Source: a virus
Lineage: Duplodnaviria > Caudoviricetes
Length of the DNA: 64,000 nt
Strand: one strand, 5' to 3'
IMG/VR virus record: IMGVR_UViG_3300036805_000175
Coordinates: 1 to 64,000 of that record
The translations under genes were made by a program, and so were the position numbers. Below are positions 5,733-63,230 of the stretch, piece after piece; within the stretch, counting starts at the first letter, position 1, and each line of letters opens with the position of its first letter. The notes below the pieces were generated by a model that saw nothing but the letters and a program-made list of their open reading frames with translations, was not told the DNA's origin and did not search any database.

Positions 5733-7894
5733 CGCCGCAGCCGCAGGATGAACTGGACGCCTGGCAGGCCGCAGGGCCGCAGTCCCGGCCGGAGTCCTCG
5801 AGCGCCTGGGCCTGGATGAAGCGCGCGCCCGTCGAAAGGCTCACCCTGCCCGTGGCCGGGGCTACCTGGCTCGCGGCGGACATCCTGCACGCCGTCGCCG
5901 TCAGCCCGCTCATTCCCGTCGCCGCGGCACTGCTGGCCGCACGCATTGGCTACAAGCGGGTGGGCCGCCACGTGAAGCGCATGGCCGCGCATCAGGGCCA
6001 CGAACCGGAGCGCAACTACCCCGCCGATACGGCGGCTGCCATCGGTGCTGCGGGCGGCTGGCTGGCCGCGGCGACCGCCTGGGGACCTGGCGGCATCCTT
6101 GGCTACGTGTGGCTGGGCGTCTCGTTCAGCGGGTACCTGTGGCTGCGGTTCTGGCATCCCGGCGTGCAGCACGCCCGGACGTGGCGGGCCCGGCGCCGGG
6201 CATGGACGGGTGGCGAGGCGCACTCGCTCGGCCTGCACGGCTCCCACATCACCCACTACAAGGAGACCAGGCTGGGCGAGTGGTTCCGGCTCGACGTCAC
6301 CGGAACGGGCCGGATGTCATCCTCACTGGCCGGGCGGCACACGGCCGAGCGGATCGCCCAGCGGCGGCGCCTGCCCGTCTCGCGGGTGCTCGTCACCCAG
6401 GGTGCCATCGCCGGAGACCTGGAGGTGTCCATCCGCGACCGCGACCCCTGGCACGAGCAGCGCCCGCACCCGCTGCTCGACCCGGACCCGCAGATCCCGC
6501 TCACCGTGGGCGGTTCCATCCTCGACCCCGCCGTGTTCGGTGCCGACCCGGAAGAAGGCCACCCGCTGGACCTGGCGCTGTTCGACCGGGACCTCGGCGC
6601 CCGGCGCATCCTGGTCATGGGCACGCCCGGCTACGCGGGCAAAACCGTGCTAATGAACTGTTTCCGCGAGCGGGTGACCGCTGCGGCCGACGCAGTGATG
6701 GTCAGCATCAACCTGTCCAAGGGCATCGAGGACCGCGCCTGGGCACCCGCCTGCCACCTGACCGCCATCGGCGCCCAGCAGGCCGGCCGCGCACAGCAGA
6801 TCATGGACCTGCTGGTGGCCGTCATCGACATCCGGCCCACCCTCCGCAGTCATGCGGTGTTCCGCCCCGGCACCGATGGCCCGGCGATCGTGCTGTTTCT
6901 GGACGAGGCCGACGTGGCCACCCCGCACATCAAGCAGCAGCTGCGGGACGTGCTGTCGAAGGGCCGCAGCGAGGGCATCACGGTCATCCTCGCCGCTCAG
7001 CGCGCCTATGGCGGGTGGATCGGCGGCCGGGACACCCGCTCCCTCGTGGACGCCGTCTGTGCCGGCACGGTCACCCGCACCCGGGAGACTGACCTCGCGG
7101 CCGGCTCGCTCGCTCACCTGCTGCCGGACATGACCGCCTACGGCGAGGGTTCCCCCGGCGTGTGGGGCATCGCCGAGATTACCGGCCGCACCCAGCGTGG
7201 CCGCTCGTTCCCGCTCACGGACCTGGACGACTCGCGCCGGTTCGCCCACGACCGGGCCCGCTCCCAGCCGGTGCTCGAGCCCGCTCTCGTGGCCGCGCTC
7301 CGGGAGCGCCTGGGTGACCTCTACGACGGCCTGCTCGGCTCGGACGCGTTTGCCGCATGGGCCGCAAGTTACCCGCCAGTAACCAGTGATGGTGAGCCCG
7401 CAGAAGTGCCCGCGCCCGGGACCACGCTGGCCCCTCCCCCGGACGGCATGCACACTGAGGAGCGCGAGACCGCCCGTGCTGCCACCGACGACCTGGAGGC
7501 GTGGCCCGTGCATGACGACCAGTTCCCCGCCACACCCGCGGACCGCCGCGCCATGCTCCGCAGCAGGATCGAGAACGCGAAGGCGGCGAACGCGCGCGCC
7601 GACGCCATCCAGGCCCAGATCGAGGCCGACGACCCGGCACAGGTGCGCGCGGCGTTCGACCGCGCCTGGGAGAAGCAGAAGGCCAGCACTCCGTTCCCTG
7701 AAGGAACCCGCAAGCGGCTGCTGGAACTGCTCGCTGACGGCACCACCAGCAGGCAGGCCGCCGCCGACCTCGGCGTGCCAGCCTCCCGGGCCCTCACCTG
7801 GCTGCACCGGCTCAGGGACGACCGGCTCGCCCGGCTCGAGGGCAAAGGCCGCGGCTCACGCTGGGTCGCCGCCGAGGATGGTGACGCAGCGTAG
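5729..7894 (+). CDS. TraB/TraSA-like FtsK/SpoIIIE-family conjugative DNA translocase
   Basis: N-terminal TM segments; P-loop ILVMGTPGYAGKT; Walker B IVLFLDEAD; LSKGRSEGITVILAAQR; C-terminal winged helix (TTSRQAAADLG...WLHRLRDDRLARLEGKGRGSRW). Confidence 0.82.
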   Translation: MTPQPQDELDAWQAAGPQSRPESSSAWAWMKRAPVERLTLPVAGATWLAADILHAVAVSPLIPVAAALLAARIGYKRVGRHVKRMAAHQGHEPERNYPADTAAAIGAAGGWLAAATAWGPGGILGYVWLGVSFSGYLWLRFWHPGVQHARTWRARRRAWTGGEAHSLGLHGSHITHYKETRLGEWFRLDVTGTGRMSSSLAGRHTAERIAQRRRLPVSRVLVTQGAIAGDLEVSIRDRDPWHEQRPHPLLDPDPQIPLTVGGSILDPAVFGADPEEGHPLDLALFDRDLGARRILVMGTPGYAGKTVLMNCFRERVTAAADAVMVSINLSKGIEDRAWAPACHLTAIGAQQAGRAQQIMDLLVAVIDIRPTLRSHAVFRPGTDGPAIVLFLDEADVATPHIKQQLRDVLSKGRSEGITVILAAQRAYGGWIGGRDTRSLVDAVCAGTVTRTRETDLAAGSLAHLLPDMTAYGEGSPGVWGIAEITGRTQRGRSFPLTDLDDSRRFAHDRARSQPVLEPALVAALRERLGDLYDGLLGSDAFAAWAASYPPVTSDGEPAEVPAPGTTLAPPPDGMHTEERETARAATDDLEAWPVHDDQFPATPADRRAMLRSRIENAKAANARADAIQAQIEADDPAQVRAAFDRAWEKQKASTPFPEGTRKRLLELLADGTTSRQAAADLGVPASRALTWLHRLRDDRLARLEGKGRGSRWVAAEDGDAA

Positions 7895-19791: not shown

Positions 19792-19870
19792 CACCCCCCC
19801 CCCCGCAAGCCCACCCGCGCCCAGCGGGTGAACCGCCGCGCGATCCGCGTGGCGTGCAGTGCCGCCGCGC

Positions 19871-19948
19871 CGCCAGTCAGAGCGGCTGCGGCTCGTACCC
19901 GCCAGTCAGAGCGGGCAAGTCACCCGCCCGGGCCGCCAGTCAGAGCGG
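19871..19948 (+). repeat. Three perfect 15-bp direct repeats CGCCAGTCAGAGCGG upstream of the capsid gene
   Basis: Copies at 19871-19885, 19900-19914 and 19934-19948. Confidence 0.9.
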
Positions 19949-20004
19949 CCCCGGTGCCAGACGGCACGAACCTCACCGTTCACAACGCCCAGGAAGGCAC
20001 CGCA

Positions 20005-21522
20005 GTGAATCCCACCATCGACAGCCTGCTCGCGCAGGCCGAGGTCGAGAAGGAAGCCGCCGAGCACCGCCGTCAGCGGGCCCGCGCCGAGATCACCTAC
20101 ATCATCAACGCCGCCAACTCCGAGGGCCGCTCCCAGCTGAGCCCCGAAGAGGAGCAGAAGGCGTCCGACGCCCGCAAAGCCCGCGACCAGGCCCGCAAGG
20201 ACATCGCCGGCATCGAGGGCAAGATCGCCAACCTGCGTGATCTGCAGGCCGAGGAGAGCGAGTACGCCTCGGCGCAGCAGCGCACCCAGGCCGCCGGGCA
20301 GCCCATCGCCACCGAGCGTGGCGGCGACCCGGGCCGGGCCGGCGGCGGCGACGCGCCGCACTCCACCGGCGGCCAGGGCGGCCAGCGGGCGCCCGCCTAC
20401 GACCAGGTGCACCGGGTCGGCGCCGAGGCGCGCACCTACACCAGGGGCTCGGACCCGAACGGGCGGCAGTTCCTGATGGACGTGTGCCGGGCGCACATCC
20501 TGTCCGACCCGGCCGCGCAGGCCCGGCTGTCCCGGCACATGGCCGAGGAGCGGGTCGAGCGGACCGCCGAGCAGATGCAGCGCGCGGCCGGCGACAGCAC
20601 CACCGGCAACTGGGCCGGGCTGACCGTGCCGCAGTACCTGACCGACATGTACGCGCCGGTCGCCCGGGCGCTGCGCCCGTTCGCCGACATCTGCAACAAG
20701 CACCCGCTGCCCGCCAACGGCATGGCGCTGGACATCTCCCGGATCACCACCGGCACCGCGGTGACCCAGCAGGTGAACGAGCTCGACAACGCCTTCCAGC
20801 AGAGCGCGGACGACACGCTGCTGACCGTCCCCGTGCTCACCGCGGCCGGGCAGCAGAAGGTGTCCCGGCAGGCCATCGACCGGGGCACCGGCATCGAGGA
20901 CGTGCTGATGCAGGACCTGTTCGCCGCGTACGCCACGTCGCTGGACAACCAGCTCATCACCACCGCGAGCACGGGCCTGTCGGCGGTGGCGAACACCGTC
21001 ACGGCCAACACCACCACCAACCAGGTCCAGTCGGCCTACTCCAAGATCCTCGGTGCCATGTCCGGGGTGGAGGCGGCCCTGCTCAACATGGGCTACCCGA
21101 CGCACGCGGTCATGCACTCCCGCCGGTGGTACTGGTTCGCCTCCCAGCAGGTGAGCACGTTCCCGTTCGTGCAGCAGCCGGGGATGCCGTTCAACGCGAC
21201 CGGCGCCGCCGAGCCCGCCAGCCACTACAACAGCGGCGTCCGGGGGCACCTGCCGATCGGGCTCGAGGTCGTGGTGGACAACAACCTCGCCACCAACCTC
21301 GGCGCCGGCACCAACCAGGACGAGATCTACGTCGTCCCGGACCGGGAATGCCATTTGTGGGAGGATCCCTCGGCCCCTCTTTATATTCGTGCCGATCAGC
21401 CGGCGGCCCCGAGCCTCGGAGTTCTTTTGGTCACGTACGGTTACTTTGCCTTTACTTTTGCACGCTATTCCGGTGCAATCCAGAAAGTTTCTGGCACGGC
21501 ATTGTCTGTACCTGTGTTTTAA
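20005..21522 (+). CDS. Major capsid protein (HK97 fold, N-terminal coiled delta domain)
   Basis: GTG start after AGGAAGG; coiled N-term; GLTVPQYLTDMY, VSRQAIDRG, DLFAAYATSLDNQ. Confidence 0.9.
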   Translation: MNPTIDSLLAQAEVEKEAAEHRRQRARAEITYIINAANSEGRSQLSPEEEQKASDARKARDQARKDIAGIEGKIANLRDLQAEESEYASAQQRTQAAGQPIATERGGDPGRAGGGDAPHSTGGQGGQRAPAYDQVHRVGAEARTYTRGSDPNGRQFLMDVCRAHILSDPAAQARLSRHMAEERVERTAEQMQRAAGDSTTGNWAGLTVPQYLTDMYAPVARALRPFADICNKHPLPANGMALDISRITTGTAVTQQVNELDNAFQQSADDTLLTVPVLTAAGQQKVSRQAIDRGTGIEDVLMQDLFAAYATSLDNQLITTASTGLSAVANTVTANTTTNQVQSAYSKILGAMSGVEAALLNMGYPTHAVMHSRRWYWFASQQVSTFPFVQQPGMPFNATGAAEPASHYNSGVRGHLPIGLEVVVDNNLATNLGAGTNQDEIYVVPDRECHLWEDPSAPLYIRADQPAAPSLGVLLVTYGYFAFTFARYSGAIQKVSGTALSVPVF

Positions 21523-21584
21523 TCCTTAACCACTCCGTCATTCTAGAGTGGCTATTCTTCGCGCAATTCTTAGTCGCTTTCCCG

Positions 21585-21645
21585 TGGTACAATTAGCGGA
21601 GCCAGCGAACGGCTCCCGGCCGGGATGTGCCCCGGCCCGGGAGCC
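21585..21645 (+). promoter_or_regulatory. Extended -10 promoter and GC hairpin preceding the EndoVII gene
   Basis: TGGTACAAT at 21585-21593; hairpin GGCTCCCGG-CCGGG...CCCGG-C-CCGGGAGCC at 21611-21645. Confidence 0.5.
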
Positions 21646-21678
21646 TGCCGACCACCCGATCGAGACTCGGAGGCCGAC

Positions 21679-22359
21679 GTGCCCAGGGTACTGCAGCCCG
21701 CTACCTGTCCCTCGTGCGATGGCGAGTTTCTGCCAGCAGACCGCCTCGCGAAAGTGTCTGCCCAGGTCTACTGCTCACTCCAGTGCCGGGCGCGGTACAA
21801 GATCAGGCGGCGTAGCAGGTGCGCCCGCTGTAAGACCCGCAAGATCGAACGCGGTTCCTACTGCCGTCCCTGCCAGCGGGCCTACGATCAGGAGAATAAA
21901 GCCCGGTTCCGGCCCACCTGTGCAGCCTGCGGTGCCCTGCGGGAAAGCAATGCTAGCCATCCGTCCTACTGCCGGGCCTGCATAAGCGTAAAACGGGCCT
22001 CGGCAAAGCGGTGGCGGAAAACATGCAGGACCTGCGGGAAGTTGCGTGAGGACAGTTCGCATCCGTCCTATTGCCGTGCCTGCCAGTGGGCGGCATGGCT
22101 CCGGCAGAAATACAAGATCACGCTGGAAGAGTTCGCAGCTAAGGTGGCCGAGCAGGATGGCCGGTGTCCCATCGATGGCGAGATGCTGGACGTGAGCCTG
22201 GACGCGATGACTGGCCGCCGCAAGACCCGCGTGGATCACGACCACAGGACTGGCCGGTTCCGGGGCATCACGTGCCACCGCCACAACATCGGCATGGGCT
22301 ACTTCGCCGACGACCCGGCGCTGCTGCGGGCGGCGGCCAGCTACCTGGAGACGGCGTGA
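21679..22359 (+). CDS. Free-standing endonuclease VII-family (HNH) homing endonuclease with Zn-finger repeats
   Basis: YKITLEEF...QDGRCPI...VDHDHRTGRFRGITCHRHNIGMGYFADDP; tandem CxxCG...HPSYCRAC repeats. Confidence 0.88.
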   Translation: MPRVLQPATCPSCDGEFLPADRLAKVSAQVYCSLQCRARYKIRRRSRCARCKTRKIERGSYCRPCQRAYDQENKARFRPTCAACGALRESNASHPSYCRACISVKRASAKRWRKTCRTCGKLREDSSHPSYCRACQWAAWLRQKYKITLEEFAAKVAEQDGRCPIDGEMLDVSLDAMTGRRKTRVDHDHRTGRFRGITCHRHNIGMGYFADDPALLRAAASYLETA

Positions 22360-22533
22360 TAGCTGAGATCGTGGGTGGCCAGTTCGACGGCTCCCAATAC
22401 ATGCTGCCCTCTGGTGTGTATCCGGGCTCCACGATCGTCACGATTGAGCGCGACGGCCAGATCTGTGAACGTGGAGCCCGCTACCTGCCTCGCTGATTAC
22501 GCCATCCATCCTCCCGGACAGGAGATCCTGCAA

Positions 22534-22875
22534 GTGACCGCAACGCCGCTCTTGAGCTATGAGCTGATCACCGAGGACGTGCGCATACCCGCATCCGGGA
22601 ACACCTGGACCCCCAGTACTGCCGGTATCATCGTGGACCTGGACATTCCGGCCGACGGTTTCGTCGCCGGCTCCGGCGTCATCGTCCTGCAGGTGCTCAA
22701 CACCTCCGGCGATATGGTTGATGTCACCGATTATGAGACGGTCGCGGCGGCGGGTGACGTACACACGCACAGCGGCCCGCACCCCACCGACTCGGCCAAA
22801 TGGCGATTCCAGATTTACGCTGACGAGCAGATTCCTCTCGTGCACCTCTGGATGACCGTTCTCACCGGTCCCTAG
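22534..22875 (+). CDS. Hypothetical beta-rich protein (lower GC3)
   Basis: ORF 22375-22875; start uncertain (22471 or 22534). Confidence 0.5.
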   Translation: MTATPLLSYELITEDVRIPASGNTWTPSTAGIIVDLDIPADGFVAGSGVIVLQVLNTSGDMVDVTDYETVAAAGDVHTHSGPHPTDSAKWRFQIYADEQIPLVHLWMTVLTGP

Positions 22876-22877
22876 CC

Positions 22878-23429
22878 GTGAGGCTGGTCCGCTCCTGGCC
22901 GGCCGACGTGCCGGGCCACCATCCCCGCGTCGTCGACGGCCTGGAGCGGGTCATCACGGACGGCCCGGACTACCGGCCGCTGGCGGGGATCGATGACGAC
23001 CTGATCCACCTGGACTGGGACATGGCCGTCTGCCCGGAGGACCTGGCCCACTTCGCCGCGCACGCCCGCGAGGACCCCGGCGCGGTGCTCGTGGGCCCGT
23101 ACAGGATGTACGCGGGCAGCCTGCAGGGTGCCCGGCCGCGCGGGCTGGCCGCCGATGAGTGGGCGATGCGCCGGTACTGCGCCGGGCCGGCGGGCGCGGA
23201 GACGGCGATGCGGCACATCACCCCCGGCGACGGGGCGTGCCACCTGTTCGGGTTCGGCATGGTGTACTTCCCGGCCGGGCTGCTCGCAAAATTCTGTGCG
23301 GCGTTCCCGGGGGAGCCGCTGACCGACATCGGCTGGTCCGGCTGGCACAACCGCAACGTGAGCTATGAGGCGCGGCTGTGCTGGCACGTCCACCCGGTGC
23401 ACCTGAACTTCCCCCCGCCGTCGCTGTGA
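22878..23429 (+). CDS. Putative minimal GT-A-fold glycosyltransferase
   Basis: DDDLIHLDWDMAV (DxD after a beta strand), CHLFGFGMVYFP, DIGWSGWH...VHPVHL. Confidence 0.45.
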   Translation: MRLVRSWPADVPGHHPRVVDGLERVITDGPDYRPLAGIDDDLIHLDWDMAVCPEDLAHFAAHAREDPGAVLVGPYRMYAGSLQGARPRGLAADEWAMRRYCAGPAGAETAMRHITPGDGACHLFGFGMVYFPAGLLAKFCAAFPGEPLTDIGWSGWHNRNVSYEARLCWHVHPVHLNFPPPSL

Positions 23430-23493
23430 CCCCTTTGAGAGTGCAGGCTCCGGTAGGGTCTGCCGTAATGGCCATCACCGATGGGAGTGAGCC

Positions 23494-23712
23494 ATGAGCA
23501 CCGACCGGGCCGAGCATCTCGCGGACGAGCTGGCCGACGCGGAGACCGACGGTCGCAGCACGGACGCGCAGCGGATCGCCAAGCACGCCGAGGCCGAGCG
23601 GGAAGCCGCCGGCCGTGACCGCGGCGAGGCCGCCGCCGAGCGCGAGCAGCAGACCCGCAGCCGCCACACGCCGCCGAAGGGCCGCCGCCGCGCCGCCCCC
23701 GGCAGCACGTGA
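23494..23712 (+). CDS. Small charged capsid-associated protein
   Basis: GGGAG RBS; charged helical; ends PPKGRRR. Confidence 0.55.
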   Translation: MSTDRAEHLADELADAETDGRSTDAQRIAKHAEAEREAAGRDRGEAAAEREQQTRSRHTPPKGRRRAAPGST

Positions 23713-46101: not shown

Positions 46102-46419
46102 GTGTCCGGGATACCCGTCGAGCTCGTCATCACCGGCGGCGTGGTGCAGCTCCAGAAATGCGGCCTGTACGCCCACGCTGTACCGATTCTCAACAGCCAC
46201 CACGTTTGCCCGGAGTCCTGGTGGCTGGCCGCCGGGAAGCCTGTTGCCTCCCCGTTGTTCAGCCTCTGCCCGGACTGCCACGAAGCGGTGCATGTGGCGA
46301 TCGACGCCCAGATCCGGGGCCTGGGCACCTCGCTGCTGCCGCCGCGGTGCGTGAAGCTCGCCGCTGAGGCGTTCCCCATCGCCGAAGCGAACGGGCTCAC
46401 CCCGGCACTGACCCTGTAG
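46102..46419 (+). CDS. HNH-like small protein
   Basis: SHHVCPESW...LCPDCHEAVH. Confidence 0.55.
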   Translation: MSGIPVELVITGGVVQLQKCGLYAHAVPILNSHHVCPESWWLAAGKPVASPLFSLCPDCHEAVHVAIDAQIRGLGTSLLPPRCVKLAAEAFPIAEANGLTPALTL

Positions 46420-60501: not shown

Positions 60502-61684
60502 GTTCCGCCATCACGTAGGCGCGCTCATCCTCGGTCAGGTCGGCACGCAGCCGCAGGACGGTGTTCTTGATCCGCGGCCGCTCGGCACTGCCGGCCTTGG
60601 GCTCGTAGCGGAACACGGGGAAGAACCGGGACGCGCCGCCTGAGTCGGCATACATGCTGCCCGGTGTGCCGGCCCCGGGGAAACTGGTCGCTCTAGGATT
60701 GCCGTTTGGCCCGTGATCTACGGCGCTGTAGACGCCGCTGCTCTTGAGCTTCCCGCTCTGCCGGTCCAGTTCCTCTGCGGCTTCTGGGCCGAGCAGGACG
60801 TTCGGCGGCCAGCGGCCCATGCCGTCATGAGGCGCAGGCTGCACGGCCCCGGCCCCATCCGTGCCGCCTGCAAGACGGCCAGCCGCATATGTCCTCGTCC
60901 CCGCCGCCCGCTTGTCCTGCGGGGAACCCACCCGGCACCCGCCTACGTTCACCGCCCCCGTGCCGTGCTCCACCACGTTCGCGGCAACGGTCCCCCGGAG
61001 TGGCTTACGGGCGAGCCACCACATCTCGTGGCCCGGCTTGAGCGCGGTTCCCCAGCCGTCCCAGCGGGCGGCGTTCTCAGTAGCGGGAGCGGTCACGGGA
61101 ATCTCGCCCGGCAGGCCAAGACGGTCACCGTAGACCTCTGGTGAGGCGTTCGGTCGGGCACGGGCACCTCGCGTCCCGTCTGGGAACTGCGGGCGTGTGC
61201 CGACTACCTCTCGCGCAGCACCGGCCGCCCTGTCGATGGCCTTGGACACGTCCAGCGACTTCGGGAAGCCCGAGCCGAACAGGTGCGTCACGCAGTCGCG
61301 GATCTCCAGCCCGGCGTCCTCGATCGCCCAGGCCGTCCAGTGCGAGGTGCGCGGGATGGACCAGACCAGAGCGTGCGCGCCGGGCTTCATCACGCGCATC
61401 GCCTCGGCCAGGACGGCGGTCAGCCACTCCACGAAAGCCCCGCGCTCGCCGTGCCCGTACTCCGGGCCACGGGCAGACGTGTGGCCGGACACGTCACCAC
61501 GGCCCACGTCGGCAGGGTTGCGGGCCCGGCGGAAGTCATCCCACTCGCGGCCCATGAACGCAATTCCCGCTGGAGGGTCGGTGACTACCGCGTCGACGCT
61601 GGCAGCCTCCAGGGTGGGCAGCACAGTGAGGCAGTCCCCGAGGTGCAGCGTCACCCGGTCGTCCGCCCAGTATGCCTCGGTCAT
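60473..61684 (-). CDS. N-terminal part of beta-class N4/N6 DNA methyltransferase
   Basis: LHLGDCLTVL...VVTDPPAG...FGSGFPKSLD...WGTALKP...GRWPPN...SRFFPVFRYEPKA; lacks motif I. Confidence 0.88.
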   Translation of the reverse strand: MTEAYWADDRVTLHLGDCLTVLPTLEAASVDAVVTDPPAGIAFMGREWDDFRRARNPADVGRGDVSGHTSARGPEYGHGERGAFVEWLTAVLAEAMRVMKPGAHALVWSIPRTSHWTAWAIEDAGLEIRDCVTHLFGSGFPKSLDVSKAIDRAAGAAREVVGTRPQFPDGTRGARARPNASPEVYGDRLGLPGEIPVTAPATENAARWDGWGTALKPGHEMWWLARKPLRGTVAANVVEHGTGAVNVGGCRVGSPQDKRAAGTRTYAAGRLAGGTDGAGAVQPAPHDGMGRWPPNVLLGPEAAEELDRQSGKLKSSGVYSAVDHGPNGNPRATSFPGAGTPGSMYADSGGASRFFPVFRYEPKAGSAERPRIKNTVLRLRADLTEDERAYVMAELRKAGVDAA

Positions 61685-62355
61685 GCCGCGCTCCCGTACC
61701 GCCGGTCGCTGCCCTTGAGCACGACGCGCGTGGTCATCTCCGTGAGCCGGGACGCCACCCGCTCCCCCAGCGCGCCGGCCAGGTCACGCGGCGGGATGTT
61801 CGAGGTGAACAGGGTCGGCAGCGCGTGCTCGTAGCGGTGGTTCACCAGCCGGTAGTTGACCTCCTCCACCCATTCGCTGCTCTTGGCCGCGCCCAGGTCG
61901 TCCAGCACCAGCAGGCCAGCGCCGCCGACCGCGGCGAACTCGGCCTCGGAGTCGACGCCGTGCCGTGGCCGCATCCGCGCGTACAGGTCGGCGGCCGGGA
62001 TGGCCACCCACCGGGAGCGGATGCCGCACGCGGCCAGCCCGCGGATGACGCCGTACGCCTCATGCGTTTTGCCCGTCCCCGTGGGCCCGAGCAGCAGCAG
62101 CGAGGGACCGCCGTCGACGGAGGCGACCACGCGCCGCCGGGCCAGGGCGTGCCGCACCAGCACGGCCACCCACGTGCGCACACCCTCGTCGGTGGCCAGG
62201 GCCGTGGCGTAGCGGGCCGGGATGCGCGACATGGCCTGGCTGAACGCCTCGGCGGCACCGTAGTCGCCGTCGTCGGCGGCCAGGGACGCGGAGTCGATGC
62301 CGCTGCCGGCCAGGAACTCCTCGCGCCATGCGGCGAGGTCGCTGGGAAGGTTCAC
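61681..62355 (-). CDS. DnaC/IstB-like AAA+ helicase loader
   Basis: LLLLGPTGTGKTH, LLVLDDLGAAK, NHRYEHALPTLFTSN, GERVASRL. Confidence 0.92.
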   Translation of the reverse strand: MNLPSDLAAWREEFLAGSGIDSASLAADDGDYGAAEAFSQAMSRIPARYATALATDEGVRTWVAVLVRHALARRRVVASVDGGPSLLLLGPTGTGKTHEAYGVIRGLAACGIRSRWVAIPAADLYARMRPRHGVDSEAEFAAVGGAGLLVLDDLGAAKSSEWVEEVNYRLVNHRYEHALPTLFTSNIPPRDLAGALGERVASRLTEMTTRVVLKGSDRRYGSAA

Positions 62356-63230
62356 CGGGGACGCAACTCCTCGTTGTAGACGGACGGGTCGGCGGGGTTG
62401 CGGAAGGTCTGGTGACCCTGCTCGCTGGTCCCGCCACCACCGTTGGTTATGCCGTTGACGAAGCTCGCCAGCGTGGACGGATGCTTGGCCGCGATACGCC
62501 ACTGCTCAAGGCCGGCCCGGATGTCGTCCGTTTCCTGGCCCTCGTCGAGCAGCTTCTTGAGCTCTGCGGATATCTGGCCGATCACCCGGTCGGGTGGGCG
62601 CTTGCGGCAGGCGCGAATCCATTCAGCGACGAGCGTTCCGGCTGTCGCCGTTGTGGCTTGCTCGGTCCGCGCTGCCTGCGCCGGCGTAGCCGGAACGGGT
62701 TTGGGTTCGGGTATGGGCGCTATCTCGTTAGAGATAGCCCGGTGCGCCGGCGCGCGCGAGCCATCACTTGCCATCGGCTTGCCAGCAACGTCATGGCTAC
62801 CCTTTGGCAAGTTGTCAGGATTGGATGGCAAATTGCTATCGGGCTTTGACTCCGGGCCATCCGCGTCACGCTTGGCCCACCGCGCCTGAGCACCGCGCCG
62901 GCCTGCTTGCGCCCGTGCCTCACGCGTCTTCGGCGTCGGCAGGTACTGGTCGAAGTCGTGGATCAGCCACCCGTCGCCCTCGTCGCGGGATTCCCAGAGT
63001 TCTTCCTTGACGAGCAGCGCGGCGAGCTCGCGCGCACCCGGCCCGAGGTAGCGCCGCGGCAGGTGCGCGGGAAGCAGGCCCGGCGTCTTGCCTTTGCGGA
63101 GCGTGTTGCGGTGCGCCCAGGTCAGGCAGAGAGTCCATAGGCCGATAGCGGCACCGCCCTGCTCGTGGTCGAGCAAGGCGAGCACCTTGGGGTGGTCGTC
63201 GAACGCATCGTCAATGCGCGCCCACGCCAT
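62352..63230 (-). CDS. Phage replication initiator (replisome organizer)
   Basis: MAWARIDDAFDDHPKV...GLWTLCL...LVKEELWE...GWLIHDFDQY; low-complexity middle; directly upstream of dnaC-like gene. Confidence 0.85.
   Translation of the reverse strand: MAWARIDDAFDDHPKVLALLDHEQGGAAIGLWTLCLTWAHRNTLRKGKTPGLLPAHLPRRYLGPGARELAALLVKEELWESRDEGDGWLIHDFDQYLPTPKTREARAQAGRRGAQARWAKRDADGPESKPDSNLPSNPDNLPKGSHDVAGKPMASDGSRAPAHRAISNEIAPIPEPKPVPATPAQAARTEQATTATAGTLVAEWIRACRKRPPDRVIGQISAELKKLLDEGQETDDIRAGLEQWRIAAKHPSTLASFVNGITNGGGGTSEQGHQTFRNPADPSVYNEELRPR
62760..62840. repeat. Iteron-like repeats inside the initiator gene (candidate ori)
   Basis: CTTGCCA at 62767 and 62778, inverted TGGCAAG 62805, dyad GATGGCAA-A-TTGCTATC 62824-62840. 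Confidence 0.55.

Follow-up and report, generated by a model that had tools for sequence, protein, structure and literature searches.

How does a phage gene come to change its codon usage within the space of one codon and still encode a normal protein? The question is raised by a 64,000-nt stretch of DNA from a virus of the Caudoviricetes (Duplodnaviria), positions 1 to 64,000 of the 76.6-kb IMG/VR record IMGVR_UViG_3300036805_000175 and hereafter called the window, in which the last 58 codons of the major capsid protein gene depart from the G+C content at third codon positions (GC3) of the genome, ~0.98, next to a gene for an endonuclease of the EndoVII type. The reading that we favor, at a probability of roughly 0.7, is intronless homing, in which a free-standing endonuclease cassette would have arrived together with a co-converted and probably resistant allele of the capsid 3′ end. 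An earlier note on this DNA had proposed the same, and the proposal gains support from the sporadic occurrence of the gene, from phylogenetically independent pairs of loci, from the position at which the recoding starts and from one natural pair of contigs with and without the insert.

The capsid open reading frame (ORF) ending at 21522 matches the major head protein family phrog_2263 (4e-46), and >200 relatives of its product were found. The earlier note had counted 29 A/T-ending codons among the last 58, a count that is exact to the base (21346-21519 in the capsid frame, the stop codon being 21520-21522), and had described the upstream capsid codons as G/C-ending, which is borne out by a single A/T-ending codon (at 21052) among the 342 at 20320-21345 (Fisher p = 7e-27 against the tail). 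The switch in composition is abrupt, since the first A/T-ending codon of the tract is the GAA at 21346. When 10,569 segments of 58 codons were ranked over the 39 ORFs of the window with at least 150 amino acids and a GC3 of at least 0.85, the capsid tail had the highest number of A/T-ending codons, the runner-up having 24; the latter lies in ORF 61684-62502 (- strand), which may be a spurious ORF or a foreign segment. Total G+C falls from ~0.71 to 0.44 at 21425-21574, is 0.62-0.68 from there to ~22900 and amounts to ~0.72-0.78 on both sides, while GC3 is ~0.98-0.99 in the capsid body and 0.74 in the ORF that begins at GTG 22375 (other segments in Table 1). The compositional island thus delimited, 21346-22877, comprises the capsid tail and an insert behind it, between flanks with a GC3 of 0.95-0.99. 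At the protein level the tail is a normal capsid C-terminus, as had been claimed: its length of 58 residues, from the E of the motif ECHLWEDP to the end, is shared by 109 of 131 relatives, to which it is 62-74% identical. The family consensus codon is matched by 33% of the comparable tail codons versus 78% in the gene body. An extension of the capsid by frameshifting at its TTTTAA end was considered and rejected, as the alternative frame closes at 21529. The recoded tail is probably a donor allele acquired by co-conversion.

The insert, 1,355 nt at 21523-22877, separates the capsid gene from a downstream gene and can be recognized as an insert because homologues of the downstream gene directly follow the capsid stop codon in many relatives. 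In many nuclease-free relatives they begin 1-40 nt after it (tblastn offsets of 1-39 nt in the loci L078, L043, L048, L055, L070, L047, L076 and others), and the downstream gene gave 48 tblastn matches among the loci fetched at that stage. A blastn search of 19800-23500 against 50,697 phage records returned no match, a pattern scan of viral contigs for the endonuclease gave no confirmed match, and the best capsid relatives anywhere are 63-66% identical in amino acid sequence (L003, L004, L083). As the window phage is without a close relative, the comparison of loci with and without the endonuclease was run on the capsid family instead, in a set of 131 non-redundant loci from viral and metagenomic contigs (L003-L162) and a prophage set of 72 loci (L170-L241) from Streptomyces, Kitasatospora, Amycolatopsis, Frankia, Micromonospora and others.

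A natural pair is formed by L031 and L028, both from the same metagenome (IMG/VR 3300026304). Upstream of the insertion point, 3,827 nt ending at the capsid stop codon align with 95.1% identity, and downstream 381 nt do so with 97.1%; between these flanks L028 has a 29-nt empty site and L031 a segment of 683 nt that contains an EndoVII gene. The mismatches between the two rise from 3-4 per 100 nt to 17 and 30 per 100 nt in the final ~220 nt of the capsid gene, the tail being ~76% identical, with 30 synonymous versus 8 non-synonymous codon differences, and no divergent tract was found on the other side of the insert. The alignment of capsids with and without the endonuclease that the earlier note had called for therefore gave the expected divergence, confined to the 3′ end, in this pair; the window phage itself, with relatives of at most 66% amino acid identity, offers no such comparison. 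L081, with a nuclease of a second group (group B, below), and L119 also differ by the insert; here the tail is 94.8% and the body 97.4% identical.

Across the family set, an EndoVII or HNH ORF directly follows the capsid gene in 28 of the 131 loci (with Pfam checks on L031 and L052). The GC3 drop, defined as the capsid tail compared with the 200 codons upstream of it, has a median of 0.167 in nuclease loci versus 0.004 in the others (Mann-Whitney p = 8e-9), and a drop of at least 0.15 is found in 14 of 27 nuclease loci versus 8 of 91 others (Fisher p = 4e-6); the drop in the window, 0.50, is the largest of all loci. Nuclease presence changes at least 22 times on the tree of capsid bodies, and 18 phylogenetically independent pairs comprise ~8 concordant, ~0.4 discordant and 10 unchanged ones (median sign-test p = 0.016). 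None of 71 nuclease-free prophage loci has a drop >0.15. In the prophages of cultured actinomycetes the nuclease occupies the site in only one of 72 (L182), a much lower share than in the viral and metagenomic loci, and because a single nuclease locus is too few for a second association test, the prophage set was used as a nuclease-free control only. The excess of A/T-ending codons in nuclease loci starts at the E codon of ECHLWEDP and has its maxima at codons 0-17 and in the last ~20 codons, whereas the profile along the tail is flat in nuclease-free loci. The three nearest EndoVII homologues for which upstream DNA is available (L164, L165, L166) all stand behind a family capsid with a low-GC3 tail, followed in two of the three by a homologue of the downstream gene, and the window enzyme groups with L165 and L166 in one clade (99/99).

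The point at which the recoding begins coincides with the most conserved part of the gene. Among 103 nuclease-free relatives, the 24-nt segment with the highest conservation (0.943) within the final 1,224 nt of the gene has the consensus GAGTGCCACCTGTGGGAGGACCCG, and its position is exactly 21346 in the window. The window carries GAATGCCATTTGTGGGAGGATCCC instead, with five differences, all of them silent. Mean mismatches to the consensus 24-mer are 2.6 in nuclease loci versus 1.3 in nuclease-free loci (p = 7e-4), and the 24-mer of the window is identical in the nuclease-bearing L124 and nearly so in L165. The 24-mer may be the target of the endonuclease, the carrier allele being one that differs from it. 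In L083 (1765-1941), one of the three closest capsid relatives, EAHFWEDP replaces ECHLWEDP, with normal GC3 and no nuclease.

The enzyme itself is a member of the Endonuclease_7 family (PF02945; 52.6 bits versus a cut-off of 23.6, 4.4e-14, residues 158-242 of the 244-residue ORF; 55.6 bits in a genome scan) and also matches the endonuclease VII families phrog_2914 and phrog_2633 (1e-23). Its closest homologue is 43% identical over the full length, and among solved structures the restriction enzyme Hpy99I is the best match (E = 0.015). Five residues, D204, H205, H207, R213 and N221 (numbered from ATG 21625, in the motif VDHDH...FRG...HRHN; counterparts of D40, H41, H43, R54 and N62 in T4 EndoVII), are invariant across 10 homologues including the window enzyme, and a catalytic D, H, H, R, N motif defines the DHHRN family of F-CphI (PMC6083498). 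In that family a C-terminal motif is characteristic of the endonuclease clade and an N-terminal one of the resolvase clade (PMC6083498); in the window enzyme the motif lies in the last ~85 residues, with tandem zinc ribbons N-terminal of it, and by this position the enzyme would belong with the endonuclease clade rather than the resolvase clade. A Holliday-junction resolvase of the T4 gp49 type was rejected on the same position of the motif after the ribbons, on the location of the gene among head genes and on its sporadic occurrence in relatives. An intron-encoded homing endonuclease was likewise rejected, as the capsid frame runs without interruption to the normal C-terminus and no Rfam intron match was obtained; 20800-23200 has no Rfam match at E <= 1. 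EndoVII-type proteins are annotated in ~900 phage records, and PF02945 occurs once in the record of the window phage. A supposed second EndoVII gene at 7625-7654 is merely a 30-nt DNA match and was discarded, given this single PF02945. HNH-domain matches elsewhere in the phage record lie at 67703-67858 (- strand) of G000 and at 46153-46293 (+ strand) of the window (24 and 18 bits, respectively).

The position of the endonuclease gene next to the capsid gene was correctly described in the earlier note; a start of the gene at ATG 21625 was not retained. The start is most likely GTG 21679, because the leader and the alignment around this start are conserved in L165, L166, L164 and L059, because two homologues begin with MPRV.QPATCP and because an independent gene caller gave 226 residues on another assembly (a Logan contig). 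Zinc-ribbon modules with the pattern C..C(G)...(S)HPSYCR.C stand in tandem at 21679-22100, in ~3-4 copies; they are more numerous in the 302-304-residue homologues P0001 and P0002, and an additional ribbon at the N-terminus distinguishes L165 and L166 from the window enzyme. These modules may constitute a modular DNA-reading array. The zinc ligands read CPID and CHRH against the pattern CX2-4C ... CX2C, with the first Cys of each pair kept and the second replaced by Asp and His; L165 has CPIG/CHRH, and group B enzymes have CPEH at the second site, the sole site read in that group. CPID/CHRH may mean that other ligands are used or that the site is weakened.

Between the capsid stop codon and the endonuclease, the A/T-rich spacer, the extended -10 (TGGTACAAT) and the hairpin that the earlier note had claimed are all found where it put them. 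The same order of elements, namely TAGAAT/TACAAT, a GC hairpin, a conserved box and GGAG(G)CCGAC-start, recurs in five loci (window 21585-21684; L165:404-481; L166:300-372; L164:155-244; L059:5476-5554). Compensatory changes on both sides are seen in 11 of 22 predicted leader pairs, the second predicted helix covers the ribosome-binding site, and the z-score of the leader fold is -1.6. The two GC hairpins, 21598-21616 and 21611-21645, are mutually exclusive in a switch-like manner. Over 21200-23000 on the + strand, neither a two-hexamer promoter of the sigma-70 type nor a T-tailed terminator was detected, and because of the former result the leader is regarded as no more than a putative promoter, in which TGGTACAAT resembles a -10 element in sequence; a regulatory role is putative as well.

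Taken as a mechanism, intronless homing would have proceeded as follows. In a mixed infection, the enzyme would cut a cassette-free capsid gene in or near the nearly invariant sequence coding for ECHLWEDP, ~175 bp upstream of the insertion point, and the break would be repaired from the cassette-bearing genome. Because the repair uses this genome, copying would extend over everything from the cut to the cassette and so take in the last 58 capsid codons. The copied segment would encode the same protein with differences at silent sites, making the carrier allele a poor substrate, and would be visible as an abrupt fall in GC3 because the genome has a GC3 of ~0.98. What is delivered in this way, at 21523-22877, would be the endonuclease with its own leader and two small ORFs. 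Activity of the enzyme, cutting at or near the 24-mer and resistance through silent changes are all deductions from sequence in this account.

Table 1. Features of the capsid 3′ end, the putative homing cassette and its flanks (positions in the window).
Feature	Position	Strand	Remarks
Major capsid protein gene, native part	20005..21345	+	Probable start GTG 20005, preceded by AGGAAGG
Recoded capsid tail	21346..21522	+	Last 58 codons and stop; GC3 0.50
Candidate recognition region	21346..21369	+	Codes for ECHLWEDP; window GAATGCCATTTGTGGGAGGATCCC, consensus GAGTGCCACCTGTGGGAGGACCCG
Cassette leader	21523..21678	+	A/T-rich spacer, stem-loop 21530-21551
-10-like TGGTACAAT	21585-21593	+	TAGAAT/TACAAT element in relatives
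Overlapping GC hairpins	21598-21616 and 21611-21645 (stronger)	+	Fold prediction
Conserved box TGCCGACCACCCGA	21646-21659	+	TGCCGA(A/C)C.CCCGA across loci
GGAGG	21669-21673	+	Ribosome-binding site ahead of GTG 21679
Free-standing EndoVII-type (DHHRN) endonuclease	21679..22359	+	226 aa (244 aa from ATG 21625), GC3 0.78
46-aa ORF	22356..22496	+	Overlaps endonuclease stop (GTGA); called on Logan contig by independent gene caller
113-aa ORF	22534..22875	+	Inside low-GC island; AGGAG 9 nt upstream; 113 aa also on another assembly
Downstream flank gene, native	22878..23429	+	GC3 0.95; marks empty site

Several observations weigh against this account. The window phage has no relative above 66% identity, and its own tract is seen merely as a change in composition. 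Its tail shares no silent sites beyond chance with 108 other tails (best z ~2.4, mean 0.1), and as this sharing is at chance level, given the codon usage of each tail, no donor lineage could be named. The divergent tract in L031/L028 begins ~46 nt upstream of the E codon, so that the cut site is not pinned to the 24-mer, and the non-canonical zinc ligands mean that the activity of the endonuclease is not assured. Group B EndoVII genes (178-186 residues; L005, L006, L017, L019, L087, L081) occupy the same junction, and their loci keep an unrecoded tail with mostly the consensus 24-mer, so the presence of a nuclease at the site does not by itself imply that the 24-mer is its target; group B enzymes must cut elsewhere, be inactive or leave short conversion tracts. 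Conversely, recoded tails occur in the nuclease-free L047, L079, L098 and L071. The downstream gene directly follows the capsid in L047 and L079, and in L098 another ORF takes the place of the nuclease of L031; the tails of these three combine low GC3 with a 24-mer bearing 3-6 changes. It may be that the nuclease has been lost from these loci and the resistant allele remains, or that the allele spread without it, and such tails are also expected from plain recombination. The earlier note had named a low-GC3 tail in relatives lacking the endonuclease as evidence against its proposal, and a few such relatives do exist (L047, L079, L098), whereas most nuclease-free loci show no such drop (at least 0.15 in 8 of 91). 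Lastly, the GC3 of the tail (0.50) lies below that of the endonuclease gene (0.78), in the same direction as in most group A loci, and because the tail is richer in A/T-ending codons than the nuclease gene, simple hitch-hiking from a single donor would leave part of the composition unexplained.

These points bear on what else could have produced the island. In an ordinary event of mosaic recombination, the island would have come from a lower-GC relative through the conserved capsid 3′ end, with the EndoVII gene as a passenger or with some other role, e.g., as a junction resolvase. Capsid relatives of lower GC do exist (GC3 ~0.6 in L051, L064, L038 and L142), and they match the consensus codons at 0.41-0.56, near the 0.33 of the window tail; other cargo sits at the same junction (L054, L035, L042, L098, L071), the PF02945 gene is the only one in the record, and nuclease-free loci with recoded tails fit as well. 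Yet the link between tail and nuclease holds in independent pairs, the tract in L031/L028 is one-sided and confined to the capsid side, and the recoding starts at the most conserved 24-mer, while a resolvase role sits badly with a C-terminal motif behind N-terminal zinc ribbons, which is unlike resolvase-type EndoVII, and with the sporadic occurrence of the gene. We therefore regard this origin as unlikely. Donor inheritance would play no part if the silent recoding were kept by selection on a function of the DNA or RNA, such as promoter or regulatory signals of the cassette, translation or mRNA structure. This would agree with a tail GC3 below that of the nuclease in nearly all group A loci, with the renewed rise of A/T-ending codons over the last ~20 codons beside the cassette and with the conserved leader, and in T4 the promoters of segA, segG, mobC and mobD are situated within the 3′ part of the preceding gene (PMC2988022). 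A length of 174 nt, however, far exceeds that of a promoter, the first peak of A/T-ending codons lies ~150 nt from the cassette, on the 24-mer, no two-hexamer promoter was found and the fold z-score is modest, and recoded tails persist without a cassette in L047 and L079, all of which makes such a function an improbable cause.

An artificial origin has also to be weighed, in which short sequences common to two related phages, near 21337 and 22922, would have led the assembly to join the two. In an independent unitig assembly of the probable source run, one contig spans exactly 21337-22922, with an overlap of only 30 nt with its neighbors, and the sequence immediately before 21337 is common to many related capsid variants. 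Unitig depths are nevertheless similar across the joins (9.0, 8.93 and 11.3, the middle value being that of 21337-22922), both joins are in frame with the gene order intact, L031 and L028 align collinearly to either side, and the same architecture of a high-GC3 body, a low-GC3 tail and a nuclease is found on at least 10 independent contigs from other samples; chiefly because of this recurrence, we hold a chimera to be highly improbable. The contigs of the probable source run contain no joint that skips the island and no cassette-free variant, although contigs cannot show absence. Just upstream of 21337 the summed depth is 3-4x higher, with variant letters at 21286-21336, which suggests that related capsid genes co-occur in the same soil sample and agrees with a genuine genome in the company of related phages.

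A different matter is whether the recoding, once acquired by homing, is maintained by selection, through an arms race in which two EndoVII groups and an HNH group, all of them occupants of this site, contend over the capsid 3′ end. We entertain this only as a tentative idea that is rather doubtful. The notion of a "maximal recoding" of the tail was dropped, as the match of 0.33 fits an ordinary donor with a GC3 of ~0.5 (low-GC relatives: 0.41-0.56), and because such a donor suffices, the consensus-codon match does not separate selection from descent. If there were an arms race, most silent changes away from the common allele would lower GC3 in a genome at ~0.98, which would explain why the tail of a highly expressed gene keeps a GC3 below that of the endonuclease gene, and does so in nearly all group A loci; the divergence between cut and cassette would suppress crossovers and keep the resistance site linked to the nuclease; L047, L079 and L098 would be escapees; and the alternative leader hairpins would time expression.

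The remainder of the insert consists of its small ORFs. The 46-residue ORF, which has no informative homologues, may be translationally coupled cargo. The 113-residue ORF is probably cargo of the insert as well; it has a single homologue (40%) in 5.8 billion proteins and is absent from all capsid relatives, and the longer ORF 22375-22872 (from GTG 22375) that contains it has no Pfam or PHROG match. In relatives, the junction after the capsid holds varied cargo, including methyltransferases (L054:4271-4837, L035:2641-3129), a protein with an fn3 domain (L042:5561-6010), an HNH endonuclease (L052:2593-3246) and ORFs without assigned function in L098 (2328-2750) and L071, and it is a general insertion hot spot of this capsid family. 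In L059 (6230-7323), two downstream-gene homologues stand in tandem after the endonuclease.

Among cultured phages, capsids ~30% identical in amino acid sequence are found in the cluster J mycobacteriophages. A 2013 study by Pope et al. (cited in PMC10448857) reportedly deals, to judge by its title, with introns in capsid and tail genes of this cluster; these capsids would thus also be invaded by mobile elements, the element in the window being a free-standing gene and not an intron. In T4, free-standing endonucleases cleave at a distance from the site where their genes are inserted, with co-conversion of the DNA in between (PMC2988022), and the tract in L031/L028 follows that pattern. The window resembles this system in having a gene between conserved genes that is present or absent among relatives and a putative cut in the neighboring gene, and its leader, with hairpins and a ribosome-binding site that appears sequestered, is like those reported for T4 endonuclease genes (PMC2988022). 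It differs from a T4 GIY-YIG endonuclease in that the enzyme is an EndoVII/His-Me finger protein of a high-GC actinomycete phage, the tract appears as a composition break, and the system is known from sequence alone. A parallel in gene order is T4 segD, a free-standing endonuclease gene that immediately follows the major capsid gene, 23, and precedes gene 24 (PMC2988022, Table 1); SegD, however, is a GIY-YIG enzyme whose activity is given there as not determined and whose target as unknown, and the text read describes no recoded capsid end. F-CphI of cyanophage S-PM2 is likewise free-standing, has a C-terminal D, H, H, R, N motif and targets a conserved phage gene (PMC6083498), a likeness drawn from the description of the motif, but it is linked to a group I intron site in psbA, whereas the window has no intron and a presumed target in the capsid gene. 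More broadly, homing endonuclease genes cluster beside essential genes at exchange boundaries, and capsid genes occur in 31% of T5orf172 neighborhoods (Barth et al., 2023, PMC10448857). Those nucleases belong to the T5orf172 and IPA-HNH families and to other hosts, and the window adds a footprint at base level and a candidate 24-nt site.

The mechanism proposed here, intronless homing, is therefore already known from T4, as are endonuclease genes beside capsid genes. To our knowledge, most experiments on free-standing homing endonucleases have been done with T4-like phages. In the window, the footprint of homing would be readable directly from the sequence of a high-GC soil actinomycete phage, because any silent change stands out against a GC3 of ~0.98. 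The locus yields predictions in the form of an EndoVII/DHHRN enzyme, a 24-nt candidate site, a resistant allele and a natural pair of contigs, and the candidate site lies in a capsid gene common to hundreds of Streptomyces-type phages and prophages. The 3′ end of the capsid gene in this family has been entered repeatedly, by nucleases of at least three lineages, which bears on mosaic boundaries in the structural modules of actinophages, and an abrupt local fall in GC3 could reveal such events in other high-GC phage genomes.

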